A DNA stretch of 64,000 bases from an uncultured Planctomycetales bacterium. GTDB taxonomy: Bacteria; Omnitrophota; Gorgyraeia; Zapsychrales; JBDRMG01. The stretch covers positions 23,186 to 87,185 of the forward strand of contig CAYZIY010000006.1 of the NCBI GenBank assembly GCA_964478715.1, in the 5' to 3' direction. Shown one piece after another: positions 8,641 through 56,296 of the stretch. Each line of letters opens with the position of its first letter. The first letter of the stretch is position 1. The translations under genes and the position numbers were made by a program. The notes beneath the pieces are model-generated. The model had not been told where the DNA came from and made no database searches. It was given only the letters and a program-made list of their open reading frames with translations.

Positions 8641-9044
8641 TTTCTTTTTTCTAGGCTATATTGTCCAGGTCCGATGATGGCTAAACTTATAAATATAATA
8701 AATAGTTTTAAAGGATGACTGAAGACCGAGAATTCCTGCCCATTATTGATATGCATCATGGTGGCGACGAACATAGTTAGCGCTAATAATACATTGGCCC
8801 AGCGAAAAAGAAATCCTGCTGTCAGCAGAAATCCTCCAAGAAATTCGGCAACAGAGGCCAGGAATCCAAAAAGTGTGGGGGCAAAATAAATTCCGACACT
8901 GGCCGTTGCCATTCCTAAAGATTTCCAGACCTCGGGTCCTCCCGTTATTTTGGGCCATCCGTGAAGCATCATCATAATGCCTAATCCACAACGCAGGATG
9001 AGCAATCCAGTGTCTTTATTTTCTTTCAAAAAAATATTACGCAT
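8637..9044 (-). CDS. DoxX family membrane protein
   Basis: Four predicted TM helices with LLILRCGLGIMMMLHGWPKI. The ORF track start at 9119 would overlap the upstream gene by 83 nt, so the internal Met at about 9044 was chosen. Confidence 0.55.
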   Translation of the reverse strand: MRNIFLKENKDTGLLILRCGLGIMMMLHGWPKITGGPEVWKSLGMATASVGIYFAPTLFGFLASVAEFLGGFLLTAGFLFRWANVLLALTMFVATMMHINNGQEFSVFSHPLKLFIIFISLAIIGPGQYSLEKRK

Positions 9045-10752
9045 CGGGACCTCCTTCTTTTTTCTGATTAACATGGTTCTTAAGCCTGCGAAGAAATTCT
9101 GGATGAGCCTTGTGGCCAAGCCGTAAAGACATTTTACAATTTTTCCATGCTTTTTGGTAGTTTTGTTTTTTGTAATAGGCTAAAGCCAAATTGTAGTAGG
9201 CTGTCGGAAAATCTGGATCTATTTTTGCAGCTTCCTTGAAATACGCAATTGCTTTATCCAGATCTTGTAGAAGATAGTAAGATTTTCCAATACTGTTGGG
9301 GATAAACGGATCATCAGGATCAAGGGCTTTGGCCGTCTTAAGCGTTTTTAAAGCCAGGTGAGGCTTACCTGCGTTGTTATAAGCAATTCCCAGGTTCAAA
9401 TGGATAGGCGCGTTTTGCGGAAATCTGCCGAGGCCTTGATGAAGAATCTGGACAGCGTCTTGAGGCCTCCCTTTTTCAATGTAGAGATATCCGAGATTGA
9501 CAAAAGGAAGCGCGATAGTCGTATTTTTTGCAAGAAGAGATTCCCATAATGTCTCCTCATCCTTATACCGGTTTGTTAAGTGAAATGATTTCACGGATAA
9601 AAAAGTGATCATCATTAGGCTCAGGAAAAAGCTTCCGATAGATCGATGGAAATTTCTCAAAAATAAATATCGTTTTCTTAAGCTTTCCCAGAAATAAAAA
9701 AAGAATGTTAAGAAAAAAAAGATCAAATACGGCATAGCTGGATAAGTAAAATGATCCGCGACAAAAGAAAACTTCATCCCATAAAAATTAAAAAATCCTA
9801 AAACCGGGAAGAGTGCGGCTGTCATCATAAGAAAAGATAACAAGGGCTCCCTTTTGTTGTTTTGAAATAATCTAAAGAGAACAAAGAGGATTGCCGCTAA
9901 GGCCAGCGGAAAAGCATAAGACCAGAGGTTTGTTAAATCCAAATTCCAGTGGGGATAAAAAAACAGGAATTCACCAAACGGAAAAAGAAAACGACTTGAA
10001 TAAAAAAACAGAATTTGACAAGACAGTAAGAGCCGTTGGGCAATACTAAAATCCCACTCAGGGCCGTAAGCTCCCACTCGAAATCTTTCCAGATAGACGG
10101 TATGCAAAGCCGCCACAAGACCCATAATGAGAAATGGTCCAATCCTTTTGGCATCTCGTCTAGTTGGTCTCTCTCCTTTTCGCAGGGTCACAAAGATCGG
10201 AAAAAGAATGAAATGCACAACCGCTGTCTTGCACAAGAGCGCCAGGGTGAAACAGAAAAACGAAAGAGCGTACCAGCCTGTTTTATTTTCATCATCATAT
10301 CGCATAAAACTTAAAGCGGCGCAAAAAAAGAAAAAAAGGCTAAAAATATTTTTTTGCTCCATTACCCAGCAGACCGTCTCCACCTGAAGCGGATGGCAGG
10401 AGAAAATAAGGGCGCCCAGAAATGCGAATTTCGGGAACAGCCGACGAAAAAATTCGAAACACAAAAGCGTATTGGCGATATGGAAAACAAGACTGAGGAG
10501 ATGATATCCGAGAGGATTCAGCCCCCAGAATTTTTCCTGAATCCAGAAAAAAGAAAACACCAGGGGGTAATACTGGTGTATTTTATGAGAAAACCAAATA
10601 TTTTTCAGACCCTCCAGATTTTGCAGATAAGGATTGTTGAGGATGTAGGAATCGTCATCCCAGATAAAACCATTACCGAGAGAGGATGCATAAATCAAAA
10701 GGGGCAAAAGGATCAGTATGAAAATTTTAGACTCTCGATTGAATGATAACAT
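9037..10752 (-). CDS. TMTC-like polytopic membrane protein (GT-C/DUF1736-type N-domain) with C-terminal TPR repeats
   Basis: N-terminal loop motif GNGFIWDDDSYILNNPY followed by more than 8 TM helices. The C-terminal 150 aa are TPR repeats (AYYNLALAYYKKQNYQKA). Confidence 0.6.
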   Translation of the reverse strand: MLSFNRESKIFILILLPLLIYASSLGNGFIWDDDSYILNNPYLQNLEGLKNIWFSHKIHQYYPLVFSFFWIQEKFWGLNPLGYHLLSLVFHIANTLLCFEFFRRLFPKFAFLGALIFSCHPLQVETVCWVMEQKNIFSLFFFFCAALSFMRYDDENKTGWYALSFFCFTLALLCKTAVVHFILFPIFVTLRKGERPTRRDAKRIGPFLIMGLVAALHTVYLERFRVGAYGPEWDFSIAQRLLLSCQILFFYSSRFLFPFGEFLFFYPHWNLDLTNLWSYAFPLALAAILFVLFRLFQNNKREPLLSFLMMTAALFPVLGFFNFYGMKFSFVADHFTYPAMPYLIFFFLTFFFYFWESLRKRYLFLRNFHRSIGSFFLSLMMITFLSVKSFHLTNRYKDEETLWESLLAKNTTIALPFVNLGYLYIEKGRPQDAVQILHQGLGRFPQNAPIHLNLGIAYNNAGKPHLALKTLKTAKALDPDDPFIPNSIGKSYYLLQDLDKAIAYFKEAAKIDPDFPTAYYNLALAYYKKQNYQKAWKNCKMSLRLGHKAHPEFLRRLKNHVNQKKEGGPDA

Positions 10753-12978: not shown

Positions 12979-13497
12979 CTATTTAATTTTTGTGGAGGCC
13001 GCCCATTCGTCAATACGGGAGCGTTCAAACTTCCAGGCATTGCCTTCCTTTTTAGCGGGAATTTGTCCGGAATTAGCCAGCTCAATAATCGAATTTTGCT
13101 CAATCTCCAGATAACGCGCTAGTTCATCTAATTCAAGAAACTCATCCATCATTTGGCATTTTCCCTGGAAGATGGCCCCTTCAACGACATTGAGTTTGGG
13201 AGTCTGGATATTGCCGTTTAAGACCGCCGTAGGCATTAGAACAAGCATTTTGCGTGCGAGAATATCTCCCTTAACTTTTCCGGCGATAACAATATTCTCT
13301 CCATTGATATGAGCGGATACATTTGCCGTTTGACCGACGGTGAGAGTTCCGCGTGTTTCCAGAGTTCCCTCAAATTTCCCGTTAATTTTTAGATTTACGG
13401 GATCTTTAAAGGATAAGGTGCCCTGCATTTTTGCGTTGATTTCGATGACTTTTTCATGATCCTCGTTTTGACTGTTTCTGCGGTCGCGTAATGCCAT
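12979..13497 (-). CDS. Bactofilin-domain protein fused to a C-terminal HTH_17/excisionase-type domain
   Basis: Beta-helical bactofilin repeats (GTLTVGQTANVSAHINGENIVIAGKVKGDILA...VVEGAIFQGKC) followed by LDELARYLEIEQNSIIELANSGQIPAKKEGNAWKFERSRIDEW. Confidence 0.7.
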   Translation of the reverse strand: MALRDRRNSQNEDHEKVIEINAKMQGTLSFKDPVNLKINGKFEGTLETRGTLTVGQTANVSAHINGENIVIAGKVKGDILARKMLVLMPTAVLNGNIQTPKLNVVEGAIFQGKCQMMDEFLELDELARYLEIEQNSIIELANSGQIPAKKEGNAWKFERSRIDEWAASTKIK

Positions 13498-15828: not shown

Positions 15829-17199
15829 TCAGCTTTCAAAATTTTGATAAACCTTCAGTCCTTTAATGATATTAATGGCGCCCTGGACCTGATTATCGTC
15901 TTTCAGTCGCTTGGAGATTATTTCTTCGCGGCGAATCTTTTCGGCTTCATTAGGGTCATCGCTTTGCTCTTCAACGGTTTTAAAAATTTCATCGGCCTTG
16001 TCGATATTTTCAACATCTTCGCCTTTGAGCAGTTCTTCGCCAATGCGATAGACTCTTTCAATCACGACATCGGGCGTGATCCCTGTTTCGTGAATGGACT
16101 GCCCCGAAGGGGTGAAATATTTACTGGTGGTTAATCTCAGACCCGCTCCGTCAGGCAACGGAATCACGGTTTGAACCGAACCTTTTCCGAAAGACTGGGT
16201 TCCGACAATAATGGCTCTCTTGTCATCTTGAAGGGCTCCTGCCAGGATTTCACTTCCGGAAGCTGACCCTTCGTTAATCAAAACAACCAGGGGCCAATTT
16301 AAGAAATTTTTATTCCTATTTTTGGACATGATTTCTGTTGTCTGAGAGGGCCGCCTTCCTTTTGTGCTGACAATGCCGGCTCCTTCAGGGAGAAGTTCTT
16401 CGGTAATATCAATGGCGACATTCAGAAGACCGCCTGGATTATTGCGCAAATCAAGGATCAGGCTGTCCGCTCCTTGATCTTTAAGTTGTTCAAGGGCTTT
16501 GACAAATTCTTGGTGCGTATCTTCTCGAAATTCTGCCAGACGAACATAGCCGATGCTTTCTTCTATAATGCGAGTATATTTGATGTCCTGAATATGAATT
16601 ACCTTGCGCGTGATTGTGAAGTCTAGCAGTTTCAAGCTTCCCTCTCTCCAGACGGTGATTGTCACATCTGTTTTGGGATCTCCCCTCAATTTCTTTACGG
16701 CATCAGCCAATGACATATCGCGGGTGATTTCGTCTTCAATTTTGACAATTCGATCTCCGGCTTGAATTCCGGCCTCCCAAGCAGGCGTATCTTCCAAAGG
16801 CGTAACAACGGTTAAAAGGCCGTCACGGATTGTGATTTCGATTCCCAGGCCGCCGAATTTTCCCTTGGTTTCTGTCTTTAACTCTATGTATTCTTCCGGT
16901 TTCATGAATTGACTATGAGGATCAAGAGACTGAAGCATTCCATTCAAAGCCCCGTAAATCAGTTCCTGAGGACTTGGCTCTTCCGCATATTCGGTTTGCA
17001 CAGTAGCCAGGGCATAGCTAAAGAGCTCGACCTGGGTATAAAGATCGCCCTTGATTTCTTCTTGTATTTCCTCGATGGTGGCTGGCTGTCGCTCGAGAAT
17101 TTCATCAGGATTGATCGTTTCATTCATCTGGCTCAAACTTATTTGAGCAGGCAAAAGAAAAAGTATGCAGATGATCCAAGCAAGAATTCGTTTACTCAT
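15829..17199 (-). CDS. ctpA: Carboxyl-terminal processing protease (S41, with PDZ domain)
   Basis: Signal peptide, PDZ region (GIQAGDRIVKIED), and an S41 catalytic region (GSASGSEILAGALQD... FGKGSVQ). Confidence 0.85.
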   Translation of the reverse strand: MSKRILAWIICILFLLPAQISLSQMNETINPDEILERQPATIEEIQEEIKGDLYTQVELFSYALATVQTEYAEEPSPQELIYGALNGMLQSLDPHSQFMKPEEYIELKTETKGKFGGLGIEITIRDGLLTVVTPLEDTPAWEAGIQAGDRIVKIEDEITRDMSLADAVKKLRGDPKTDVTITVWREGSLKLLDFTITRKVIHIQDIKYTRIIEESIGYVRLAEFREDTHQEFVKALEQLKDQGADSLILDLRNNPGGLLNVAIDITEELLPEGAGIVSTKGRRPSQTTEIMSKNRNKNFLNWPLVVLINEGSASGSEILAGALQDDKRAIIVGTQSFGKGSVQTVIPLPDGAGLRLTTSKYFTPSGQSIHETGITPDVVIERVYRIGEELLKGEDVENIDKADEIFKTVEEQSDDPNEAEKIRREEIISKRLKDDNQVQGAINIIKGLKVYQNFES

Positions 17200-41628: not shown

Positions 41629-43425
41629 CTAATTTTTCTTTATGCACTTTTGGTAATCGAAAGGAATGTTGGGCTGGGATTGTGGAAATATTTGCAGGAG
41701 CATCTTGACGTGTCTTTCAGCTTCTTGGCATCGGGCCTCTCGGGAGTAAAGGCCGATTAAGCGATAATGAGCATCGACACTTTGAGGGGCAAAATGAAGC
41801 ACCTCATGAAATAATCGGATAGCCTCCTCGGTGTTCTCCATTTTCTCAAAGGCAAAAGCCAGGTTGTAGAGCACATCCACATCAAAGGGATTGATCCGCA
41901 AAGCTTTATTGTAAGTCAAGGCGGCATTTTTAAGGTCACCCGTGTTAAGATAAAGATTGCCGAGATTGTAAAGGACATTGGTGTCATTTGGTTGAAGACG
42001 TAGAGCATTGAGATAGCTTTCTCTGGCCTGATCCATCTCTCCCCGACGAGAATGAATCGGACCGGATTTGGAGAATGTAAGGAACTCAACGATCTTGGGA
42101 TTTAATTTCACGGGCTTACAGATGGCGAAAACGACGGCAACCCCCAGCAGGCTTGCCGAAAAAGCTTCCCATTTTTTCTTTATCAACATATCAAAAAGAA
42201 AAACAATAGCCGCGCTTTCAAAAATAATCAAAAACGGCAAGATGCTGATCCGGTGTCTGAGAATCAAAAAATAGATGAGAGTAAAAATCAATTGACTTAA
42301 AATCAGAAAGACGATCAGCCAGGCTTTGGGATTCTTTTTAAGGCCAATGATCATCCCCAGAAGCGCTAACGGTAAAATTATGCGAAAACCGTTGTGATCA
42401 AGTTTTTTCTTCCACTGTCTTTGAAAGATCAAATCCAGGTCATAGGTAGCCTGATGATCAATGAAAAAAAGCTTGAGCTTGTTAACAATCAAATCAAAAT
42501 ACCGTTGGGGATTTTCGCGGATAAAATCCACGGCTAGATTTTGCCAATAGGCGGACACCTCTGAGGGCTTGAGCTCTTTGCGGAGCCTGGATTCGGCGAT
42601 GATGCGCGGATCATCCACATGTCCCTGGTGAAAGGGCCTTAAAAACATTGGATTGTTAAATGTGCCTGTGGATTGAGGATTATTGCCGATATAAAAATTA
42701 ATGCCGCTATGGGCGCTTAAAAAAACAAAATCATTCCCCAATTTATAGTTGCGATAGGAAACGGATGCCAGCACAAGTAAAAGTCCCAGAGCGCATAATG
42801 CTAAGCGTTTTGCGATAGCTCGCGCAGATCGGCGTTTGCGAAAAAGAATAAAACAAAATGAAAACATAACGAAAATAAGAAATTTACCGTCGGCGAGAGC
42901 ACCTGATCCCAGAAAAAGACCCAGCAGGAACCAGCGCAAAAAACGGGAATGTTCATCCAAATAGAGGAAGCCGCAAATGACGACACAGCTTAAAAAGATG
43001 ATCAAGGGAACCGGCATCAGGAGCCAGTCATAATAAATCAGCGGAAAGCTCAGCGCGGTTAAAATACCGGAAAGGACAGCCACTTTTTGGCCAAAGAGAC
43101 GTTTGGCAATGACATAGATGAATATTACATTGACCGAACCGAGGACGAGGTGAAATCCGCGAATCAGCTCAATATTATCGCCGAGAAGGCGCATCAAAAA
43201 GGCCAGGAAATACGGATAAAGCGGCATGCCATGGAAGGCGCGTTTAGCCAGACCGGTTTGGGCAATGATCTGGCGGGCCCAGTCCTGATAAAAAAGGACA
43301 TCACTGCTGGGATCATCGATAAAGAAATAGTGAGCCTGCAGGAAAGCGCTGTAAGTAAAGCGCACAGCCAGGGAAACCATAAACAGGATGGCCAGAAAGA
43401 AAATTTCTTTACGATTTGCGTTCAT
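41629..43425 (-). CDS. GT-C fold (ArnT/PMT-like, GT39/GT83-type) membrane glycosyltransferase with C-terminal TPR repeats
   Basis: First-loop motif FIDDPSSDVLFYQDWA and about 11 TM helices. The C-terminal 170 aa are TPRs (VLYNLGNLYLNTGDLKNA...). Confidence 0.6.
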   Translation of the reverse strand: MNANRKEIFFLAILFMVSLAVRFTYSAFLQAHYFFIDDPSSDVLFYQDWARQIIAQTGLAKRAFHGMPLYPYFLAFLMRLLGDNIELIRGFHLVLGSVNVIFIYVIAKRLFGQKVAVLSGILTALSFPLIYYDWLLMPVPLIIFLSCVVICGFLYLDEHSRFLRWFLLGLFLGSGALADGKFLIFVMFSFCFILFRKRRSARAIAKRLALCALGLLLVLASVSYRNYKLGNDFVFLSAHSGINFYIGNNPQSTGTFNNPMFLRPFHQGHVDDPRIIAESRLRKELKPSEVSAYWQNLAVDFIRENPQRYFDLIVNKLKLFFIDHQATYDLDLIFQRQWKKKLDHNGFRIILPLALLGMIIGLKKNPKAWLIVFLILSQLIFTLIYFLILRHRISILPFLIIFESAAIVFLFDMLIKKKWEAFSASLLGVAVVFAICKPVKLNPKIVEFLTFSKSGPIHSRRGEMDQARESYLNALRLQPNDTNVLYNLGNLYLNTGDLKNAALTYNKALRINPFDVDVLYNLAFAFEKMENTEEAIRLFHEVLHFAPQSVDAHYRLIGLYSREARCQEAERHVKMLLQIFPQSQPNIPFDYQKCIKKN

Positions 43426-46195: not shown

Positions 46196-46906
46196 TTAAA
46201 AACTATGAAGTTGAGGGGTTGTTTGTGTGTGGATTTCGAATCTCGGGTTTGTTTGCTGATCAAGCGGTGTTTGACAGGGCTGGGTGTTGTCAAAGCAAGA
46301 ACGAAGCGTTAAGTCCAAATAAAAATCGCTGACAGCCGGATCGTCATTTCGTTCAAAACTGGTAACAAAACCACCAGCTTCAATGGCAGGGTCGAGAACC
46401 TGGCCCACAACCGGGGCCACGGCAGTGCATATTGTCCATCCGCCTCTGCATCGATGAATGTTCTGTCCTATTTGGGTATAGCAGGTGATCACGCCCAAAT
46501 ATTCTTCAAGGGGTACCTGTAACATGCAGGTATTCGAACACTGATCATTGGCGCCGCTATAGCCGCCGTCGTCACACTGTTCTCCAGCTACCAAATAGCC
46601 GTCTCCGCAAACTGCATCAGCAATAAGTTCCCGATAACGGCTGCGGATACAAAGAGTGGATGCGTCGGGCATGCGGATACCCAAATCATTCGCGTGTCCT
46701 GTGGCCATTTCGGCTCTTTTTGCGATTTCCATCATCAAGCCGGTTGTGCGGCTGGCAACCAGAGCATCACGGGATGCGCCTTGCTGCATTTGCCGCATGG
46801 AAGAATCTGTAACCACAATGCCGATGCCGACAATACCGGCAATGATAGCTACGATAAGCAGTTCGGTTAAAGATAACCCGTTTTTTATGAGCAGACTTTT
46901 TCTCAT
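46196..46906 (-). CDS. Type IV pilin-like protein with a Myxococcus-type cysteine-rich repeat
   Basis: Prepilin N-terminus KNG|LSLTELLIVAIIAGIVG (Glu at +5) and a C-terminal CGDGYLVAGEQCDDGGYSGANDQCSNTC repeat. Start taken at the internal Met (MRKSLL). Confidence 0.65.
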   Translation of the reverse strand: MRKSLLIKNGLSLTELLIVAIIAGIVGIGIVVTDSSMRQMQQGASRDALVASRTTGLMMEIAKRAEMATGHANDLGIRMPDASTLCIRSRYRELIADAVCGDGYLVAGEQCDDGGYSGANDQCSNTCMLQVPLEEYLGVITCYTQIGQNIHRCRGGWTICTAVAPVVGQVLDPAIEAGGFVTSFERNDDPAVSDFYLDLTLRSCFDNTQPCQTPLDQQTNPRFEIHTQTTPQLHSF

Positions 46907-46925: not shown

Positions 46926-47321
46926 TCATTCTGTCCAGGTAATATTGAGCGTGATTTTGCGCAGGGCCTTAGGGTTTCCTCCGATAGCGATGTTCGTGCA
47001 TGTAATTTGAACATCTCCGTTAAAGTTACTTAGTTCAGCCGGAAGAGTTCCTGTCCATGATTGAGTGGTTCCCGGAGCCGGAGAGCATGTTAAAGGAAAT
47101 GATCCATCCCAGATGTCCTGATTGACTTTAGACCGCAGCTCTTCCAGTATCTGTTTGCCCAAATGAGCTGCAATGATATCGCGGTCAGAAACGCCTCCTT
47201 CCTGCCGTGTCGCGCGAAGAGCGGTAAAAGTGCCCACAACGGCTACAGAGAAAATCAGAGTCGAGACAAGGACCTCGGCCAAGGAAACGCCTCGAATATT
47301 ATTTCTTAATTTCTTTATCAT
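46926..47321 (-). CDS. Minor (pseudo)pilin, PilV/GspI-like
   Basis: N-terminus MIKKLRNNIRG|VSLAEVLVSTLIFSVAVVG with Glu at +5. Start taken at the internal Met. Confidence 0.6.
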   Translation of the reverse strand: MIKKLRNNIRGVSLAEVLVSTLIFSVAVVGTFTALRATRQEGGVSDRDIIAAHLGKQILEELRSKVNQDIWDGSFPLTCSPAPGTTQSWTGTLPAELSNFNGDVQITCTNIAIGGNPKALRKITLNITWTE

Positions 47322-47322
47322 T

Positions 47323-47757
47323 TTAATTGTAGGGGCAGGCACCGGTGGTGCACCGGGGGTTTATATTGCCTTCAACATCCAGATTATTTTCTGTAACGAT
47401 GATTCGGAAGCGGGATGTATCCGCCAGAGAAGGACTGGCTGCTTCGCAAATAAACATCATACTGTTTCCGCTGCATTCATATTCAACATTTGATTCCGGT
47501 AAAATATTGATATTTAAATTTGCGTTTATGGCTGCCACTCCTTGAGCTCCTCCATTTGGCCAGAATCCACCGAATTTGGCTCGATAAGCCATGTTGGCGC
47601 CGTGAATGATGACCAAATTATTGGTGGCCGTGCGGGCTGAAGCCAGCACCATGCTGCGTTGAAAATTTGGAATCGCCAGCCCGGCGATAATTCCCACAAT
47701 GATGACGACAACAAGGACTTCCGTTAATGTGTATGATTTATGGCTGGTATATTTCAT
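47323..47757 (-). CDS. Type IV pilin-like protein (paralog of the next gene)
   Basis: N-terminus MKYTSHKS|YTLTEVLVVVIIVGIIAGLAIP with Glu at +5, and C-terminal Cys pairs. Confidence 0.6.
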   Translation of the reverse strand: MKYTSHKSYTLTEVLVVVIIVGIIAGLAIPNFQRSMVLASARTATNNLVIIHGANMAYRAKFGGFWPNGGAQGVAAINANLNINILPESNVEYECSGNSMMFICEAASPSLADTSRFRIIVTENNLDVEGNINPRCTTGACPYN

Positions 47758-47766
47758 AATAAAATC

Positions 47767-48261
47767 CTAAGGACAAAAGCCTGAAGCAGAAATGCAGTTC
47801 GGATTTGTCGCGTCAAGAGGTTGATTGAGGTGAATATAGATTAAATAGGAATTACTAGGTTGAACTGTCGCGGGATTCATATTAGGACAAGTTCCTGTCG
47901 GGCGACAAACTCCGCAAATATGAATCTCTACCGGTACTCCTAGCCCTGTTGAACAGGCATATTGTTCATTATTATGAGGAATAATATTAAGATTGAGATC
48001 CGCATTAATTCCTTGAATATCTTTCTCAAAACCTGGTCCCCCAAAAGGAGGCCAGTATGTCTGCGTTTCTAATCTTCTAGCCTGTGCGGCCGCGTGGATC
48101 AAAAGGAGATTATCGATCGCCTGCCTGGCGTAAGAGCGTTCCCGCATTCTTGTTAAGTTGGGTAGGGCGAATGAAACCAGTACCCCGAGGATGACAAGAG
48201 TAACCAGTATTTCTGTCATCGTAAATCCGTTACGCGCATATTTTAAGGGACCTAAAAACAT
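47767..48261 (-). CDS. Type IV pilin-like protein (paralog of the previous gene)
   Basis: N-terminus MFLGPLKYARNG|FTMTEILVTLVILGVL with Glu at +5. Shares the LIH.A..A.R....YWPP/NGG...G..A.NA.LNLNI.P....Y.C block with the 47323-47757 pilin. Confidence 0.65.
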   Translation of the reverse strand: MFLGPLKYARNGFTMTEILVTLVILGVLVSFALPNLTRMRERSYARQAIDNLLLIHAAAQARRLETQTYWPPFGGPGFEKDIQGINADLNLNIIPHNNEQYACSTGLGVPVEIHICGVCRPTGTCPNMNPATVQPSNSYLIYIHLNQPLDATNPNCISASGFCP

Positions 48262-48275
48262 AATGATAATCTCAA

Positions 48276-48734
48276 TTAGAAACCAAGATCCCCGCATGGG
48301 GAGCCGGCTGCCATATCCCGGCATATAATTTTCCCGTTACTGCAGATCGTGAAACCGTAGTCATTCGTTCGCCGGTCAATGCTGGCGGCCTCAACTCCGC
48401 TGGGGCAGACACCCGGATTACCGGCATTGATGATATCCGGCGCCAAGAAATTACTTGAAGCCGCTTGATCGATATCTAAAGGCCAGCCGGCATTATCGCT
48501 GGAGTAGCTGTTATGGTCAAGGCGCCAGCGTTCTTGAGAGGCCAAGACGGCTTCAAGAATGCGGCGCCCTTCTTGTGCCCGCTGGCGTTCGATGATTTTT
48601 CCCATTTTCGGCAACATCAGGCCAGCGATTATTGCGGTCATCAAGATTACGACCAATAACTCTGTAAGCGAGTAGCCGCTTGAATATATTTTCTCAGAAA
48701 ATATATCACGGAAAACTCTAAAGGAATTAGTCAT
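48276..48734 (-). CDS. Type IV pilin-like protein
   Basis: N-terminus ...KIYSSG|YSLTELLVVILMTAIIAGLMLP with Glu at +5. Start codon uncertain; the ORF track gives 48782. Confidence 0.55.
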   Translation of the reverse strand: MTNSFRVFRDIFSEKIYSSGYSLTELLVVILMTAIIAGLMLPKMGKIIERQRAQEGRRILEAVLASQERWRLDHNSYSSDNAGWPLDIDQAASSNFLAPDIINAGNPGVCPSGVEAASIDRRTNDYGFTICSNGKIICRDMAAGSPCGDLGF

Positions 48735-49182
48735 CCAAGTTATCGAACTTGCCGTTACCTGCTTTCGCGCCATCTTCTTCAATTTCTATCCAGTCATCAT
48801 CATTGCCTGGTGTCGGTGTTCCGCTTCCGGCCAATCTCCGAGTAGCTCTAATTCTGAATGTGGTATCGGTATTATCCTCCGCAGTATAATTGAATAATCT
48901 TCTGGCTGGATCATTGGGATTTTCAACATCGCATCCTGGGCAAAGATTATCATTGTTTTCTGGATCTGCTGTTTCATCGAGGCAACTATTATAGGATCCT
49001 TTAACAAAATAACATCGCTGGAGTGACTGGCGCAACTCACCGAGTGTAGAGAGCGCTTCCATGGCGCGGGACTGCTCGATTGTGTTGGAAAAACGCGGAA
49101 TCGCCAAGCCGGCCAACACACCCATAATAATAATAACAATCAGAACCTCAAGAAGCGTAAAACCTTTTTTGGATAACATCAT
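48727..49182 (-). CDS. Type IV pilin (candidate major pilin, first in the pilin array)
   Basis: N-terminus MMLSKKG|FTLLEVLIVIIIMGVLAGLAIP (classic Gly-1/Phe+1/Glu+5), AAGGAGGA RBS upstream, and an acidic C-terminus. Confidence 0.65.
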   Translation of the reverse strand: MMLSKKGFTLLEVLIVIIIMGVLAGLAIPRFSNTIEQSRAMEALSTLGELRQSLQRCYFVKGSYNSCLDETADPENNDNLCPGCDVENPNDPARRLFNYTAEDNTDTTFRIRATRRLAGSGTPTPGNDDDWIEIEEDGAKAGNGKFDNLDD

Positions 49183-49297
49183 ACTTCCTCCTTCTTTTTC
49201 TTTATTCTTTATGGAATAATTCCAAAACATATTGACAATTCACTTTAATAGCATATTTTTCTTATCCGCACCCACCTCCTCTCGAGGATATATTTTT

Positions 49298-50527
49298 TTA
49301 AAGACTCGCGATATCAAATATTGGAAGATACATAGCTACAACGGCAATCAAGATAAACACACCCACTACGATGATCATCACCGGTTCGAAAATAGTCCCG
49401 AAGCGTTTTAAAAATGTCTCAACGGTTTTTTGATAAAATTCAGATACCTTGTTGAGCATTTTGCCCAGTTCACCGGTTTCCTCGCCGACCATAATCATTT
49501 GAACCGTCATCGGCAGGAAGAATCCGCTCTGGCCCATGGGCTCGGCGATCAATTTTCCTTCACGGACACTGCTTTTGATCTCTCCGATGGCTTTTTCGGC
49601 CGTTAAGTTATTCACCAGTTTTTGAGAAATATCCAAAGCGTAAAGGATGGGGACGCCGCTTTCAACCAGAATCGCCATTTGCGAAGTGAAGCGTTCAATC
49701 ACAAAAATCTTATAAATTTTGCCGAATTTCGGCAATAAAAACAGGATATTCTCAATATTACGCCGGCCGTTAAAAGTCAAAGTATATCGATGCCCTATAT
49801 AGAGTATAGCACCAAGACTGGCCAGTATCACGAGAAATCTGGTTCTAATGAGTTCAAAAAGACTAAGGAAAAAAAGCGTTAGTCCCGGCATATCCACATC
49901 AAAGGCGCCGTAAAGATCCTGAAACTTCGGGGCGATAACGATCGCAAAAAAGCAGATCGCCCCAAAAGCGAACAGGATGAGGAAAACAGGATAGATAACT
50001 GCCGAAACAACGGCCCGATTAAAAGCGTCTTGCTGCTCCAAATAGAATGCGAGTTTTTCAAGTACTTGCGGCATATTGCCCGAAGTTTCTCCCACTTCGC
50101 AAAGACTGACCCAGAATTGATTAAAAACTTTAGGATGTTTAGCAATGCTTGAGCTAAAAGAATTGCCGGCTTCTACCTCAAGGGCCACCTGAGTCAAGAC
50201 ATCAGCCAGCTGTTTGCTTTCGACCTGTTCGATAATGATCTTAAGACTGCGTAAAAGCGGAACGCCGGAATCCAGCATAGTAGCCATTTGATGGCAGAAA
50301 ATCAGTAAATCTTCAAGGCAGATACCACCGTGCGTGTAGGCTTTTCTATCGGCTCTTTTTTTGATTTGGGCCGATGGTGTGATGCCGGAAGAATAAGCCT
50401 CTATGGCAACAATATAGTATCCCTGATTTTGTAAACGCGTAATCAGAGTGTTTTCATCAGGGGCATCATCAGTTCCCTGAAGCGTTTTGCCTCCAACATC
50501 TTTGACTGTATAGGAATAACGTGGCAA
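49298..50527 (-). CDS. pilC: Type IV pilus assembly platform protein PilC (GspF family)
   Basis: Two T2SS-F domains and three TM helices, 409 aa. Confidence 0.9.
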   Translation of the reverse strand: MPRYSYTVKDVGGKTLQGTDDAPDENTLITRLQNQGYYIVAIEAYSSGITPSAQIKKRADRKAYTHGGICLEDLLIFCHQMATMLDSGVPLLRSLKIIIEQVESKQLADVLTQVALEVEAGNSFSSSIAKHPKVFNQFWVSLCEVGETSGNMPQVLEKLAFYLEQQDAFNRAVVSAVIYPVFLILFAFGAICFFAIVIAPKFQDLYGAFDVDMPGLTLFFLSLFELIRTRFLVILASLGAILYIGHRYTLTFNGRRNIENILFLLPKFGKIYKIFVIERFTSQMAILVESGVPILYALDISQKLVNNLTAEKAIGEIKSSVREGKLIAEPMGQSGFFLPMTVQMIMVGEETGELGKMLNKVSEFYQKTVETFLKRFGTIFEPVMIIVVGVFILIAVVAMYLPIFDIASL

Positions 50528-50543: not shown

Positions 50544-52250
50544 TTAAATCGTTACACTTAAGATTTCTTCCAGACTCGTAATGCCTTCAGCTACTTTTTT
50601 CATGCCGTCTTCAAAAAGGGTAATCATGCCGTTTTTACGGGCCAGTTCTTTGATTTCCACATAGGAAGCCTGTTTGTAAATGATGCGGCGGATATCGTCA
50701 GTGATATTCAAAATTTCCGTGATAGCGACTCGCCCCTTGTAGCCGGTTTGGTTGCATTCTTCGCAGCCCTTAGGGCGATAAATAAGATCCGCATTGATTT
50801 TGATGTCAGAAAATTGCTGTTTTTCGGGCTCATAAGCCTCTTTACATTTTTCGCACAAGCAACGGGCCAGGCGCTGAGCAACAACCATGTTCAAGGAAGG
50901 CATCAGAAGATAGGGTTCGACTCCGATATCCAAAAGCCTTGTGATGGCCGACGATGCATCATTAGTGTGCAGTGTGCTTAGAACCATGTGGCCGGTTAAA
51001 GCGGCCCGTACGCAAATTTGAGCTGTTTCCAAATCGCGCACCTCACCGACCATCATAATATCCGGATCCTGACGCAGGAATGACCGCAAGGCTGAGGCAA
51101 AAGTTAAGCCGATTTCCGGCCGGACATTCACTTGATTCAGTCCGTTAATTTTAAACTCTACTGGATCTTCGATGGTCATGATATTCTTTTTCGGATCAAT
51201 CAGTTCTTTGAGGGCGGCATAAAGAGTTGTAGACTTGCCGCTTCCCGTAGGCCCTGTTACAAAAAAAAGTCCATAAGGAGATTTGATTGATTTTCTGATT
51301 TTCTCCAGAGATTTGGGATCAAATCCCAGGTGAGATAGCTGCAGAGGCGCTGCCTTTTGATCTAAAATTCGCATGACTACTTTTTCTCCCCAGACGGTGG
51401 GGACAGTTGAAATACGCAAGTCAACGGTACGGTCTTCGAGCCGTACCATGATGGCTCCATCCTGGGGCAGGCGCTTTTCGGCAATGTCCAGCTTGGCCAG
51501 GATCTTGATGCGAGAGACAATCGGCAGATGAAGGTGACGGGCCGGCGGCGGGATTTCATAAAGAACCCCGTCGATGCGATAGCGCAATGACAGACGATCT
51601 TTGGTCGGCTCCACGTGGATATCGCTTGCCCGCTCATCAATAGCCTGACGGATAATCAAATCTACCAGTTTGACCACCGGGGCTTCTTCGGCCCTGGCGA
51701 TCAGCTTGTCGAGGCTCAGCTCTGTTTCTGCTTCTCTGCTGAGGATGCTGGAGCGTTGCGTGGCCGATTCATAGGTACTTTGAACTGCTGCTCCGAGCAT
51801 AGAAGAATGACTTTCGCTATAGAATTCTTCTATCGAATGAATAATATCTGATTTTGTGGCCAGCACAAGATTGACTTCACATCCGGTTATTTTCTTCAGA
51901 TTATCCATCAAGAGCAGGTCCAATGGATCAAAAACAGCGCAGGTGAGCGAATTCAGATGGCGCGATAAGGGCAAAACCAGATTCTTCTGGGAAAATTCCT
52001 TGGAAATTAAATCTTCCAGGCCTTGATTGGGCTGAGGTTTGAGCAGTCCCCCTTGGCGTGAGGCATAAGGGATATTGAGCTGTTTAGCGAGAGCGGTAAT
52101 CATTTCGCTCTCCTTAATCATACCCAGGCGAATAAAGATTTCACCGATACGCCCGCCCTCTCTTTGCTGATGGGCAATGGCTTCTTTGAGTTGTTTTTCG
52201 GTAATGAGCTCTTGGGCTAATAATATTTCACCCAGTTTTTTATAAGTCAT
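50544..52250 (-). CDS. pilB: Type IV pilus assembly ATPase PilB (GspE family, with N-terminal T2SSE_N domain)
   Basis: N-terminal GSPII_E_N-like domain, Walker A GPTGSGKSTT, and a tetracysteine motif (CEKC...CEEC). Confidence 0.9.
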   Translation of the reverse strand: MTYKKLGEILLAQELITEKQLKEAIAHQQREGGRIGEIFIRLGMIKESEMITALAKQLNIPYASRQGGLLKPQPNQGLEDLISKEFSQKNLVLPLSRHLNSLTCAVFDPLDLLLMDNLKKITGCEVNLVLATKSDIIHSIEEFYSESHSSMLGAAVQSTYESATQRSSILSREAETELSLDKLIARAEEAPVVKLVDLIIRQAIDERASDIHVEPTKDRLSLRYRIDGVLYEIPPPARHLHLPIVSRIKILAKLDIAEKRLPQDGAIMVRLEDRTVDLRISTVPTVWGEKVVMRILDQKAAPLQLSHLGFDPKSLEKIRKSIKSPYGLFFVTGPTGSGKSTTLYAALKELIDPKKNIMTIEDPVEFKINGLNQVNVRPEIGLTFASALRSFLRQDPDIMMVGEVRDLETAQICVRAALTGHMVLSTLHTNDASSAITRLLDIGVEPYLLMPSLNMVVAQRLARCLCEKCKEAYEPEKQQFSDIKINADLIYRPKGCEECNQTGYKGRVAITEILNITDDIRRIIYKQASYVEIKELARKNGMITLFEDGMKKVAEGITSLEEILSVTI

Positions 52251-52256
52251 ATCAGT

Positions 52257-53756
52257 TCATCTCTCAAAGCGGTCTAAAGCGTTTTCAACAACAGATTCCC
52301 GGTGAAAGGAATATTGTTTCTTAAAAAAAGATTCCTGAGTCAGGAGTGCGGATTGGACAGACTTCATATCAGGCAGAATATGCGGTGTAATAAAAATAAC
52401 CAGTTCCCGTTTTGTCTTATTATCATCTTTATGCCTGAATGCCATTCCCAGAATTGGGATTTTAGAAAGAATAGGAATGCCCGTTCTTGTTTTTTCACTA
52501 TCGTCTCTCAGCAAACCTCCGATAACGATGGTTTGGTTATCCGGTACACGCAAGATGGATTTTGTTCCTCTTTCTTCCGCGTCTTTGAATGTCTGCCCTT
52601 GAAAAGTGCCGCCTGTGCGGGCTTCGATGACCCGGGGTTGAATCGCCATGGTAATTTCTCTGGTTTCTAAATTGGCTTGAGGCGTGACAGTGAGAAAAAC
52701 ACCTGTTTCGACACGTTCCGCTTCAACGGATAAAGTGGAAGATCCTTCCGAGGCCTGGGTAATCGTCTTAATTCCGATAGCTTCATCAGTTGAGATCATG
52801 ATTTCGGCGGTTTCATTATTGAGAGTGAGAATTCGCGGTCGAGCCAGATTTTTGGTATCCGTATGGGTTTTTAAAAATTGCAAGGTGGCCGTCAGCCCCG
52901 AGGCGTCGATGGTGCCGGACGTATAAGTTGAGCCGGTGACCGAGCCTTTACGGACAAGCTCATTTTGATCCCAGGGATAATAATGGGTACGGCTGCCACC
53001 GGTAAAAGAAAGCGGTGTCGCTCCCGGTTTAATCCCCATCAAATCGGCAATAGATTTGCTAATATCAAGCATCTCCACTTCGATCAATATCTGTGGAATC
53101 GGAACATCCAGTCGGGCGATGGTTTGCTCTATGGCCGGGAAACGGTCGGGATAATCGCTGACAATAAGACTGTTGGTTCGGGGATCTTCAACAACCTCTC
53201 CTTCATTCGATAATACTCTTTTTAAGGCTTCCTTAATGCCTTTATCTTCCGATCCCCCTCCGTCGCTTGAGGAGCTTTCCGATGAGTCCTCTTCGCCTTC
53301 CGCGCTTTCAATAGTAAAAGTATCTTTTATTTTCGAATTGGATACGCTGGAATGTTTGAGGCGGTAGACCCGGGTAGTTAGTTGGGTAGAGACCGGGCCA
53401 AGCGATTTGACAATAAAGATATTGCTATCAGATTGAAGCTCGTAGGTTAAGTTATTAGCCTTTAAAATACGGTTTAAGGCTTCCTCTACCGGGACTTTTT
53501 CGAAATAAAGGGTGACTTGTTTGCCTCGGATTTCATCGGCGGCAATGAAATTCATGCCGGATTGCTGGGAAAAGATCTTCAGTACATCCGAAAGCTCAGC
53601 GTCTTCAAAGTCCATCGAGATCGTTTTGTCGTACTGGGGATAAATAAAACGCTTTAAGATATCATCCTCAAAGGCCGAAGCCGAAAGGGTTGATATCACA
53701 AGGGCAACACTAACAGAAAAAATAACAGCGAATATTTTTTTCATGGCACTCCTCAC
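52257..53756 (-). CDS. pilQ: Secretin (PilQ/GspD family)
   Basis: Signal peptide, N0/secretin-N domains and the C-terminal secretin motif VPILSKIPILGMAF...ELVIFITPHIL. Confidence 0.85.
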   Translation of the reverse strand: MRSAMKKIFAVIFSVSVALVISTLSASAFEDDILKRFIYPQYDKTISMDFEDAELSDVLKIFSQQSGMNFIAADEIRGKQVTLYFEKVPVEEALNRILKANNLTYELQSDSNIFIVKSLGPVSTQLTTRVYRLKHSSVSNSKIKDTFTIESAEGEEDSSESSSSDGGGSEDKGIKEALKRVLSNEGEVVEDPRTNSLIVSDYPDRFPAIEQTIARLDVPIPQILIEVEMLDISKSIADLMGIKPGATPLSFTGGSRTHYYPWDQNELVRKGSVTGSTYTSGTIDASGLTATLQFLKTHTDTKNLARPRILTLNNETAEIMISTDEAIGIKTITQASEGSSTLSVEAERVETGVFLTVTPQANLETREITMAIQPRVIEARTGGTFQGQTFKDAEERGTKSILRVPDNQTIVIGGLLRDDSEKTRTGIPILSKIPILGMAFRHKDDNKTKRELVIFITPHILPDMKSVQSALLTQESFFKKQYSFHRESVVENALDRFER

Positions 53757-53768
53757 TTTATATTCTAT

Positions 53769-54143
53769 TTATAATTTATCGATTTTGAATTCTTTTCCCA
53801 TAAATCTGATCGAGATGCCCGTTGGTGAAATATCAAGGATTTCGGCTTGATCGATGGAATCTCCGATGCTGACAACCTCATCATTGACAATGGCTTGAGG
53901 CTTTTTCGTGTCCCAAATGAGACCGCTAATCGTCAAGGATGGGGGTATAATTTCTTCGGGAATTTCTTTTCGAATTTTAGTTTTGGGAGTAACTTTCTCC
54001 GTTGTCTCAATCGGCTTCGGCTTCTTGGGCAATTGCGAAACAAAAGGATTCTGAAATCTCAGATCCCTCCTTTCAAGAGCACAAGCCAAATGTGTTTGAC
54101 CGAAGAAGAGAAGACAGCTTAAGAAAGTGATGAATATCCTCAT
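53769..54143 (-). CDS. PilP-like periplasmic pilus assembly protein
   Basis: Signal peptide, Pro/Lys-rich linker and a C-terminal beta-domain (GLIWDTKKPQAIVNDEVVSIGDSI...). Position between pilO and pilQ. Confidence 0.5.
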   Translation of the reverse strand: MRIFITFLSCLLFFGQTHLACALERRDLRFQNPFVSQLPKKPKPIETTEKVTPKTKIRKEIPEEIIPPSLTISGLIWDTKKPQAIVNDEVVSIGDSIDQAEILDISPTGISIRFMGKEFKIDKL

Positions 54144-54754
54144 GGTTGTCCTTCCTTGAAATTGATGGCAACGATATTAATGTTAGCTGTTATCTTATCT
54201 TCGCCTGGGGGATCTGTAAAAGAAAAATAACTGCTTCTTCTGGTAGATGAGCTTCCCATTTCAAAATTGTCGACTCTCAAATTTATGTTGGCGTTTTCCA
54301 GATCATAAATGAAATAACCGATCTGCTCATACGAATCAGCTCGGACCACCAGTTGCATCTGGATCGGATAAAAAAATTCGGTCTCGCGGGATCTTTGGGG
54401 TGTGTAATCAGAAATTTGAATATTGTTAGCGGTAGCCAGCTGGTTGATCTTCCCGATCAAATCATCCACTGTTTCCGGCCCCTGTGGCAGAGATGTTCTG
54501 ATGCTATTCAGGTCCTTTTCGGTCGCGTTCATTTTTTTAACAGCTTTTTCTTTTTGTGATAATTCATTGATTTCTTGTATTAAGGTTTCTTTTTCCTTTT
54601 GGATGTATCCGGATATTTTCATTGCCATAAATAAAACGGCCAGAATGATAACGATATTGGCCAAGATGTCTTTGCGCATTTTCAGCTGATTGATGATCTT
54701 ATTGATATCAATGTCTTTAATATCGTATTCTTTAAGATCCTGGAAAGTGAGCAT
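54140..54754 (-). CDS. PilO-like inner-membrane pilus alignment protein
   Basis: Short cytoplasmic N-terminus, one TM helix, a coiled coil, then a periplasmic domain. Position between pilMN and pilP. Confidence 0.55.
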   Translation of the reverse strand: MLTFQDLKEYDIKDIDINKIINQLKMRKDILANIVIILAVLFMAMKISGYIQKEKETLIQEINELSQKEKAVKKMNATEKDLNSIRTSLPQGPETVDDLIGKINQLATANNIQISDYTPQRSRETEFFYPIQMQLVVRADSYEQIGYFIYDLENANINLRVDNFEMGSSSTRRSSYFSFTDPPGEDKITANINIVAINFKEGQP

Positions 54755-56296
54755 TTATTCGCACCTGATTTCAAAATGGGTTGACACGATATCATCTTCC
54801 TGGTTTTTGCGAACCGAGACCAAAACAATATTATCAAATTCAGCAGAAAATTCTTTGTTACGCCGCAGGGAATCGACGAATTCATTGATCACTTCCACCT
54901 GGCGTGATGAGTTTTTGTCATAAACCTGTCCTTGCAGAGAAACCACGGGGGATATTATGTTTGCGTTTTGATCCGTTTGGGATCTGGCGCGTTTTTCTCT
55001 CATTTCAATTTTCATATTATTGAGCCAAGCCCCTTTCGGAAGAAGCTGGGGGATCATGTTCAAATAAAAGGCGGTGTGCGTTTTTACCGGAACACTCTTA
55101 TAACCGTTGATTTTTCTTTCTAGTTCGATTTGCTTGCTTTGAATATCGCGGATTTTCAAGGCTTCCAATGGCGTTATTTGCTGGATAATACTCTGCTTGC
55201 GCTTCCTGACTTCATTTAATTCTCTATTTTGCCAGCTATAAAATATGCCAAGCAGAACAGCGCAAGCGACAGCGATCTTGATGGTGAGCTGAAAATCTAC
55301 CGGTGCCCATTCGACAGGGGCTTCCTTTTTTTTGGGTCTTCGCTCTCTTTCGGATAGATCGACTTTAAAAGGAAGCGGAATTTCTTGGCGCAAAGTTATA
55401 CCCATTGCCTGGAGACAACCCAGATCAATGCCCTGCTTCGATTCAAATAAACCTTGAGAACTGACAGCGGTTGTTTTGACACCAAGCGCTGTTTCAAGAT
55501 CTCCGGTTCGGCTTTGATTGATATCATCTGTAAGGAATAGAATCTCATCGACCTTTGCTTGAGAATGTTGACGGCGATAGTAGTCGAGCGATATTCTGAT
55601 TTCGTTTATCAGGTTGGTTTTTAGCGCGGCCTGGTCAGCGCTCAGGCTGCTTTGATCGGAAGAAAGCTTAAAATCTCTGATGAATTGTGGGGATTCGGAG
55701 TCGATAATCATAAGACTCCCAAACAGATTATTGAGCTGCAAAACAGCAGAAGTTTTTTTGGGTTGGATGATTTTCTTAGACCGCAGAAGTCTTAAAAGAC
55801 CGATGGGCGCCGGTTCGATGAATCCGACATCCAAGCCAGACTGCTCGATCAGTTCCCGGTATTTCCTGACAATCTCCTTGCGGACAGCAATGAAAAGAAT
55901 TCTGATGCGTCGGTTTTTGTTTTCTTTGACGGTTTGGGTGTGATAGCTGAATAATAATTCATCGAGTTTAAAAGGAATATAGCGACGCACTTCAAATTCG
56001 ACGACTCCTTTGACTTCTGAGCTGGTCATCCAGGGGATGTAGAAAGATCTCAGAATTATTTCATGACTAGGCAAAGCCAATAAGACATCTTGGTTTTGGA
56101 CTTCGTGATCTCTGAGGCATCGTTGGATGATTGCAGCTAATTTGATGTCATCGTCAATATTTTGAATGGAAGGCTGCTGCGTATTATCGAAAAGGCTATG
56201 TGGAGCCGAAAAGCAAAAAAGGCATTCTTTCTTTTGAGTCTGAACCATATTCAACGAATTGATTCCGAAATAGATACCGAGTTTCTTTTTATTCAT
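54755..56296 (-). CDS. Fused PilM (actin-like ATPase fold) and PilN (TM plus periplasmic domain) protein
   Basis: 513 aa. N-terminal 330 aa are PilM-like. Then a TM helix (IKIAVACAVLLGIFYSW) and a PilN-like coiled-coil/periplasmic region. Confidence 0.7.
   Translation of the reverse strand: MNKKKLGIYFGINSLNMVQTQKKECLFCFSAPHSLFDNTQQPSIQNIDDDIKLAAIIQRCLRDHEVQNQDVLLALPSHEIILRSFYIPWMTSSEVKGVVEFEVRRYIPFKLDELLFSYHTQTVKENKNRRIRILFIAVRKEIVRKYRELIEQSGLDVGFIEPAPIGLLRLLRSKKIIQPKKTSAVLQLNNLFGSLMIIDSESPQFIRDFKLSSDQSSLSADQAALKTNLINEIRISLDYYRRQHSQAKVDEILFLTDDINQSRTGDLETALGVKTTAVSSQGLFESKQGIDLGCLQAMGITLRQEIPLPFKVDLSERERRPKKKEAPVEWAPVDFQLTIKIAVACAVLLGIFYSWQNRELNEVRKRKQSIIQQITPLEALKIRDIQSKQIELERKINGYKSVPVKTHTAFYLNMIPQLLPKGAWLNNMKIEMREKRARSQTDQNANIISPVVSLQGQVYDKNSSRQVEVINEFVDSLRRNKEFSAEFDNIVLVSVRKNQEDDIVSTHFEIRCE

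Follow-up and report, generated by a model that had tools for sequence, protein, structure and literature searches.

A minor prepilin of an Omnitrophota bacterium with a single cysteine-rich acidic repeat inserted in its head

Can a cysteine-rich repeat known mainly from giant proteins be a genuine part of a small pilin, and if so, how is it placed in that pilin and what could it do there? This question is raised by a 64,000-nucleotide stretch of DNA (hereafter, the window), in which the last gene of a pilus gene array encodes a 236-residue prepilin with one such repeat. The host is an Omnitrophota bacterium, and the window represents a housekeeping chromosomal region. From the letters of the DNA, the original prediction had described the gene as the last of a pilin array and its product as a prepilin with a class III signal and a Myxococcus-type cysteine-rich repeat, which would make an unusual adhesin design. 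The present analysis identifies a clean insertion of a single repeat unit into one loop of the pilin head. The reading that we favour, with moderate confidence, is that of a tip-located GspJ/PilW-class minor pilin in which one inserted TIGR02232/DUF4215 unit alters the binding of the tip.

The inserted segment scored 23.4 bits (E 3.8e-5) against TIGR02232, the NCBIfam "cysteine-rich acidic repeat" model, above its curated cut-off of 20.8 bits. The alignment covers residues 99-129 of the pilin and positions 3-32 of the 38 in the profile, and the string initially quoted, CGDGYLVAGEQCDDGGYSGANDQCSNTC, corresponds to residues 100-127 (window 46526-46609). Furthermore, phmmer, run exhaustively against 1.84 billion representative proteins, returned 1205 matches at E<=1e-3. 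Most of these were proteins of 500-2900 residues that aligned only to residues ~97-131, in up to 43 stretches each and with 41-58% identity. From the matches, 1395 repeat units were taken for a comparison at unit level, and the closest unit was CGDGVLQAGEQCDDGNFLGNDGCSNTCAIEV (P0047), compared with CGDGYLVAGEQCDDGGYSGANDQCSNTCMLQV in the pilin. All conserved motifs of the repeat are kept in the insert, including CGDG, GExCDDG, CSxxC and the four cysteines. The cysteine spacing C-x10-C-x11-C-x3-C (offsets 11/12/4) is shared by 15 of the 1395 units; its middle loop is one residue longer than in the dominant arrangement, C-x10-C-x10-C-x3-C (offsets 11/11/4), which was observed in 1125 units.

Could this resemblance nevertheless be convergent or due to chance, or the gene be an assembly chimera or a pseudogene? 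Such a reading could draw on the Pfam model DUF4215 (PF13948), for which the pilin scored 22.6 bits, under the gathering score of 27, as well as on the short match of ~31 residues and the atypical spacing of the middle cysteines. Against it stand the TIGR02232 score above the curated cut-off, the similarity over the unit to more than 1000 repeat proteins, and the recurrence of the atypical spacing in 15 genuine units. The insert is in frame within an intact open reading frame (ORF), and both of its flanks align to the pilin family described below. Additionally, a 2242-bp segment that spans the gene recurs with 100% identity in a Logan assembly of run SRR7048227, which rules out assembly or binning as the source of the junctions. 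A chance or artefactual origin is essentially excluded. The match goes beyond chance, and the segment is confirmed, at the level of sequence comparison, as a genuine TIGR02232/DUF4215 copy. The two outcomes named beforehand as speaking against this identification, the lack of a significant model match and an incompatible cysteine spacing, did not occur.

The repeat had been assigned to large secreted myxobacterial proteins. The size of the carriers was confirmed, but they are not specifically myxobacterial: the repeat also occurs in a diatom adhesive-trail protein, in human pappalysin-1 and in metagenomic "choice-of-anchor A" giants. Proteins of the TIGR02232/IPR011936/PF13948 group (e.g., P0002, P0003 and the diatom protein Ca5255, P0009) share with the pilin the pattern CG[DN]G-x5-GExCDDG-x7-C[ST]xxC and its four cysteines. 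These large proteins carry Sec signals and 4-43 tandem units, whereas the pilin is a small prepilin with a class III signal and one unit. Human pappalysin-1 (PAPP-A; PDB 8a7d, 7ufg and 7y5n), a eukaryotic metalloprotease and in this respect unlike the pilin, resembles it in holding a single isolated copy (residues ~866-897) within an unrelated protein. Tandem arrays are therefore the typical context of the repeat and not its defining feature. PAPP-A was the only solved protein found with the repeat, and it was matched by a multi-repeat query (E 1.4e-6) and not by the pilin. The sequence search of the PDB with the pilin gave insignificant matches only; among them, a disintegrin-like "CGNxxVExGEECDCG" at E 1.9 was not used as evidence. 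As a separate observation, the sole match from the JGI metagenomes (L084, 74-907) is a 277-residue Sec-signal protein with a dockerin-like segment, unrelated to pilins. It contains two TIGR02232-type repeats, one of them with the CDDGGY variant that is also present in the pilin.

The protein that carries the insert begins with MRKSLLIKNG/LSLTELLIVAIIAGIVGIGIV, that is, a basic 10-residue leader with Gly at -1, Leu at +1 and Glu at +5, followed by a hydrophobic stretch. The class III signal initially noticed (G/LSLTELLIV with Glu at +5) was thus borne out, and G, A or S at -1 together with Glu at +5 was observed in all 54 members of the pilin family. A GGAAG motif is located 6-10 nt 5' of the ATG. 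With the N-methylation models suggested as a check, the result was divided: the pilin itself remained below the cut-offs of TIGR02532 (13.5 vs. 16.3) and PF07963 (13.4 vs. 21.2), whereas 24 of its 30 aligned homologues matched PF07963 at E<0.01. A longer reading frame from a start at 47014 was rejected; it would run 89 nt into the preceding gene and produce a 46-residue leader, compared with leaders of 7-22 residues in the homologues.

In addition to the giant repeat proteins, the phmmer scan recovered 17 short proteins of 182-226 residues, which match the pilin in two stretches, residues ~9-89 and the C-terminal part. All 17 have a prepilin signal at the start, and ...NPxYxLTSRxxPxxHSF is the C-terminal ending of most. 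Twelve further homologues came from a profile search, one of them annotated as [quoted passage not shown]. With the neighbouring PilB as query, loci were collected from the species representatives of GTDB; its nearest counterparts there, at ~64% identity, were without exception from Candidatus Omnitrophota, including Ca. Velamenicoccus archaeovorus LiM. A hidden Markov model (HMM) of the family detected one member downstream of PilB/PilC in ~28 of the Omnitrophota loci fetched in this way. Judged by sequence and position, the pilin corresponds, as positional orthologue, to a minor pilin that is conserved in Omnitrophota. The globular part of this family is covered by no Pfam or NCBIfam model, and the family is unannotated. 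Within these GspJ-like Omnitrophota minor pilins (the window gene and P0028-P0162), the C-terminus cited above, up to the terminal HSF-COOH, is strongly conserved.

The comparison with the family defines the position of the repeat. The loop between the conserved Arg88 and Tyr143 comprises 54 residues in the pilin and 9-23, mostly 17-19, in its 53 non-redundant relatives, none of which contains the repeat. A family HMM built without the target sequence aligned to the full protein as two domains, residues 1-89 at 71.4 bits and residues 140-236 at 36.8 bits. When residues 97-131 were removed in silico, one end-to-end alignment over profile positions 1-195 was obtained, with 120.6 bits. In this alignment, PLEEYLGVITCY of the pilin pairs with the family motif TPxNYxDDxWxCY, which places the repeat unit directly before the conserved Pro. 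The single end-to-end match after deletion, the outlying loop length and the lack of the repeat in the 53 relatives together identify a clean one-unit insertion. By these sequence comparisons, the repeat is inserted in the beta2-beta3 loop and is not part of the ancestral globular domain.

The G+C content of the insert (0.53, compared with 0.49 in the rest of the gene) and its G+C at third codon positions are not distinctive, and hence there is no compositional sign of a recent transfer. Among the ORFs of ~1.2 Mb of fetched loci, mostly from Omnitrophota, none carried the repeat, and no candidate donor was identified within the phylum. A word-indexed homologue search of 5.8 billion clustered proteins returned the target itself only, and among the 1.84 billion representatives the chimera was likewise limited to this population. 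A pattern-based scan of JGI metagenomes, sensitive to close relatives only, revealed no further chimeric pilin, and among the other retrieved proteins none combined a prepilin signal with the repeat.

In 11 of the 54 family members, the loop that holds the repeat in the window gene reads as an EF-hand-like DxDxDG sequence, for example DSNANGRVDAAD and DSDSSGNVTPGD. These members are found in L012 (~16400-17047), L021 (15740-16276), L032 (16274-16834; Ca. Velamenicoccus archaeovorus) and eight other loci, and the equivalent region of the window is 46481-46651. The sequence suggests a putative Ca2+-binding site on the minor pilin head in many Omnitrophota. Two other family members (P0116 and L043) have unrelated insertions elsewhere in the protein.

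The fold of the pilin was examined by structure prediction. The single-sequence AlphaFold model was not usable, with a predicted local distance difference test (pLDDT) value of 39. With a 30-sequence alignment, AlphaFold 2 gave a mean pLDDT of 81.8 and a predicted template modelling score of 0.70, and most of the body exceeded 85. The model has the pilin fold, a long N-terminal alpha-helix (residues 13-66) on an antiparallel beta-sheet (strands 77-81, 84-89, 139-146, 149-154, 166-169, 180-186, 195-204 and 222-229). The highest fold-match values were obtained for TTHA1219 of Thermus (10.1), XcpW (9.5), GspJ (8.7), EpsJ (8.5) and the pilin module of the modular adhesin PilB of S. sanguinis (7.2), and the next match reached 5.0. 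GspJ, XcpW and EpsJ (3ci0_J, 3nje and 2ret_B) and TTHA1219 of T. thermophilus (5g23) fold like the pilin at an identity of 6-10%; they differ from it in that none has a cysteine-rich repeat. The family profile, when compared with PDB sequences, matched pilin N-termini only. In the predicted topology, alpha1 ends at residue 66 and is followed by a 10-residue connection, a tight beta1-beta2 hairpin and then the beta2-beta3 loop with the insert. The end of alpha1 and the hairpin would place this loop at the head end distal from the alpha1 N-terminus, where, on the model, it may face outward on a tip subunit.

The genomic context is that of a pilus operon. The genes for PilMN, PilO, a secretin, PilB and PilC are located directly upstream on the same strand. 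PilC is followed by six prepilin-type ORFs, five of them spanning 46926-49230 and the target being the sixth, in agreement with the initial claim that the gene is the last of the array. Operons for type IVa pili and those for type II secretion (T2SS) have the order pilV-pilW and gspI-gspJ, respectively, and the PilV-like gene followed by the target gene shows the same order.

Is this machine then a pilus or a secretion system? In a T2SS- or MSHA-like machine, the protein would be a GspJ-type pseudopilin, and its repeat would act in the periplasm or the secretin vestibule, for example in substrate recognition or pushing. The top fold matches are indeed the T2SS proteins GspJ, XcpW and EpsJ, and the N-termini of the pilins match the GspG and GspH models best. 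In addition, PilM and PilN are fused as in GspL, PilO also matches T2SSM_b, and a PilT retraction ATPase was not found in the window. However, the Gsp scores are far below threshold, there are six pilin genes, GspC and GspK were likewise not found, and the published classification of the machine is that of a type IVa pilus. We consider a secretion-type machine improbable. Nearly all Omnitrophota have type IVa pili; their expression has been reported for V. archaeovorus, and a part in host attachment has been proposed (PMC10066038).

The pilin contains 10 cysteines (positions 86, 100, 111, 123, 127, 142, 153, 160, 204 and 211), an even total with six in the pilin body and exactly four in the insert. 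Among the 54 family members, Cys86 and Cys142 occur together in 20, are both missing in 33 and occur singly in one. Since presence or absence together is the signature of a disulfide pair, a Cys86-Cys142 disulfide, deduced from these sequences, probably staples the base of the inserted loop. Similarly, Cys153 and Cys160 are both present in 30 members, both absent in 21 and single in three, and the Cys204/Cys211 pair is common to the target and P0040. The even count of cysteines is consistent with two disulfides within the repeat. The structure paper on PAPP-A does not describe the repeat region, and hence no disulfide pairing could be taken from the literature.

These elements can be combined into a proposed sequence of events. 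Members of the GspJ/PilW class act with a PilV/GspI-like partner in priming and capping the filament. The prepilin would be cleaved after Gly10 and oxidised in the periplasm to five disulfides, three in the body and two in the repeat. The subunit would then enter the priming/tip complex with the PilV-like pilin and be located at the filament tip. The single 32-residue unit, inserted in the beta2-beta3 loop of the pilin head in one lineage only, would project from the distal head as a small, rigid, acidic and autonomous two-disulfide knob. Such a knob would most probably change what the pilus tip binds. Omnitrophota nanobacteria are thought to attach to larger cells, whose surface would be a plausible target. 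The context for a binding role is provided by the host attachment proposed for type IVa pili of Omnitrophota (PMC10066038), by the repeat itself, which is found in adhesive or surface giants, including the diatom adhesive-trail protein, and by the modules on GspJ-like minor pilins that act as tip adhesins in S. sanguinis (PMC8179133).

Several observations weigh against this reading. The pLDDT of the insert is only 44-52, as no homologue informs this region, and its fold, disulfide pairing and orientation are thus not predicted. Foldseek against the PDB ranked the same proteins first, with a best E of 0.07 and none at E<=1e-3. Furthermore, the GspJ (TIGR01711) and PilW sequence models did not match the target at E<=1, so that, on the model, the protein folds like the GspJ/PilW class and is not a member of its sequence family. 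In the 64-kb window, no gene for a GspK/PilX-like pilin, PilY1, PilT, PilD or Dsb was found. The TIGR02232/DUF4215 repeat has no assigned function in any protein, and an adhesive or binding role would follow by analogy. The chimera is known from one population only. Finally, the beta2-beta3 loop varies in length and sequence across the family, and an insertion at this position could therefore be tolerated without function.

This last point leads to another explanation, in which a self-folding 32-residue disulfide module was captured by a hypervariable loop and is functionally neutral or merely stabilising. The module would replace the acidic "TPxNYxDD" or DxDxDG loop of the relatives and have no ligand binding of its own. 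Such tolerance would fit the varied loops of 9-23 residues in the 53 relatives, the unrelated insertions in P0116 and L043 and the restriction of the chimera to one population; the acidic repeat could also substitute structurally for the loop that resembles a Ca2+-binding site in 11 of the 54 members. On the other side, every conserved position of the repeat is kept, which together with the unremarkable G+C content suggests that the insert is maintained and not decaying. Modules on GspJ-like pilins also have precedent as functional adhesins. We regard a neutral insertion as unlikely, although it deserves serious consideration, and favour an inserted unit that alters tip binding.

A more specific proposal, which we offer only tentatively and consider rather doubtful, is that the repeat on this tip-class pilin determines host or prey recognition in an ultra-small Omnitrophota bacterium. 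Type IV pili are considered central for the attachment of Omnitrophota nanobacteria to larger cells, and tip-located minor pilins encode binding specificity in the systems studied. If the proposal were true, the pilus would present a minimal version of a module of which giant secreted adhesins contain dozens of copies. It would also provide a first assigned function, and a tractable model of 32 residues, for the widespread DUF4215/TIGR02232 repeat, and imply that the tip specificity of a pilus can be re-programmed by inserting a repeat-sized unit into a loop.

The combination can be compared with known modular pilins, which a 2021 survey (Raynaud et al.) described with more than 1200 proteins and 264 architectures (PMC8179133). 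The target corresponds to such a protein, with a pilin module and a recognisable domain of a kind not restricted to pilus biology. Neither IPR011936 nor PF13948 is present among the 264 architectures in Dataset S1 of that survey (PMC8179133). The archetypal modular minor pilin, PilB of S. sanguinis (PDB 7b7p), carries a ~40-kDa vWA domain at its C-terminus via a linker, with proven adhesion (PMC8179133). In contrast, the target has a 32-residue cysteine-rich repeat inside a loop, with a putative role, and the two proteins have no sequence similarity. In its position between beta2 and beta3, the module resembles GspK and ComZ and not PilB. GspK, with an alpha-domain in the pilin beta-sheet, and ComZ of Thermus, with a beta-solenoid, are precedents for a domain inserted inside a minor pilin head (PMC8179133). 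Both inserts are large and correspond to no recognisable database domain, whereas that of the target is a tiny, recognisable repeat unit.

The suggestion that the design is unusual was supported with a qualification. The combination is unusual, as it is missing in the 53 relatives, the other retrieved proteins and the surveyed architectures, but a module displayed on a minor pilin is an already established design (PMC8179133), which makes the case less exceptional than first suggested. New aspects are the use of a repeat otherwise confined to giant proteins as a pilin module, its presence as a single 32-residue unit, and a carrier from an unannotated tip-class family of Omnitrophota. The combination is real, clean and apparently unique, and in principle it would not surprise a pilus specialist. 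The gene shows that one copy of a repeat known elsewhere only from giant secreted or adhesive proteins can be spliced into a pilin loop, and the catalogue of modular pilins is extended to a very small, disulfide-rich and internally inserted module. With ~200 soluble residues, the protein represents a compact construct for studying the structure and the ligand of the repeat. Resting on one population, the finding is of modest importance unless binding is demonstrated.

The coordinates of the pilin, its parts and the adjacent genes are collected in Table 1.

Table 1. Features of the minor prepilin gene and of the surrounding pilus operon (positions in the window)
Feature	Position	Strand	Evidence
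236-aa GspJ/PilW-like minor prepilin gene, last pilin of the array	46196..46906 (stop codon included)	(-)	Intact ORF
Leader peptide of class III (residues 1-10, MRKSLLIKNG); prepilin peptidase predicted to cut after Gly10	46877..46906	(-)	Read from sequence
Hydrophobic N-terminal half of helix alpha1, residues 11-35, LSLTELLIVAIIAGIVGIGIVVTDS	46802..46876	(-)	AlphaFold 2 helix 13-66; weak N_methyl matches
Single inserted cysteine-rich acidic repeat, residues 100-131, CGDGYLVAGEQCDDGGYSGANDQCSNTCMLQV, Cys100/111/123/127	46514..46609	(-)	TIGR02232 score, Cys spacing, loop length, in-silico deletion
Cys86 codon, strand beta2; putative disulfide bond to Cys142, closing the inserted loop at its base	46649..46651	(-)	Co-occurrence with Cys142
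Cys142 codon, strand beta3; putative partner of Cys86	46481..46483	(-)	Co-occurrence; AlphaFold 2 strands 84-89, 139-146
619-aa polytopic membrane protein, starting 3 nt past the pilin stop codon	44333..46192	(-)	ORF
PilV/GspI-like small minor pilin, immediately upstream	46926..47342	(-)	TIGR02523 PilV E 1.6e-5, 25.4 bits, sub-threshold; N_methyl
Two tandem paralogous pilin ORFs	47323-47757, 47767-48324	(-)	N_methyl, GspG-like N-termini
Two further pilin ORFs; the second, with a ComP_DUS-like head, probably the major pilin	48276-48782, 48727-49230	(-)	Library matches
PilC-type platform protein	49298-50527	(-)	T2SSF 187 bits
PilB-type assembly ATPase with MshEN domain	50544-52250	(-)	T2SSE 469 bits
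Secretin	52257-53756	(-)	Library match
PilO	54140-54754	(-)	Library match; also matches T2SSM_b
Fused PilM-PilN, one 513-aa ORF, architecture of T2SS GspL	54755-56296	(-)	Same fusion in L001

A related Omnitrophota contig (L001) shows the same gene order as the window, with PilMN, PilO, a small ORF, the secretin, PilB and PilC. Next in this shared order come the pilins, five in L001, of which the family member is the last, and then RsmE, a PMT_2/TPR protein and RecA. The two tandem pilin paralogues of the window are 39% identical over 100 residues (E 1e-24), and this duplication accounts for the six pilin genes of the window compared with five in L001. A scan for promoters and terminators gave results at chance level.

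The 619-residue membrane protein encoded directly after the pilin had no match in Pfam, NCBIfam or the PDB and no detectable kinship to the PMT_2/TPR protein encoded nearby. It belongs with uncharacterised relatives, many of which have a C-terminal TPR region, an architecture that resembles the nearby PMT_2/TPR proteins. The gene is missing at the equivalent position in the syntenic L001. It is probably co-transcribed with the pilin, its membership of the pilus system is uncertain, and a role in modifying pilins would be speculation.

Elsewhere in the window, two paralogous-looking membrane proteins with PMT_2 (GT-C glycosyltransferase-like) and TPR regions are encoded at 9037-10752 and 41629-43425 on the (-) strand, and one of the two is kept beside the pilus operon in L001 as well. 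Additionally, a 172-residue ORF at 12979-13497 (-) encodes a bactofilin domain and, C-terminal to it, a DNA-binding domain of the HTH_17 type.

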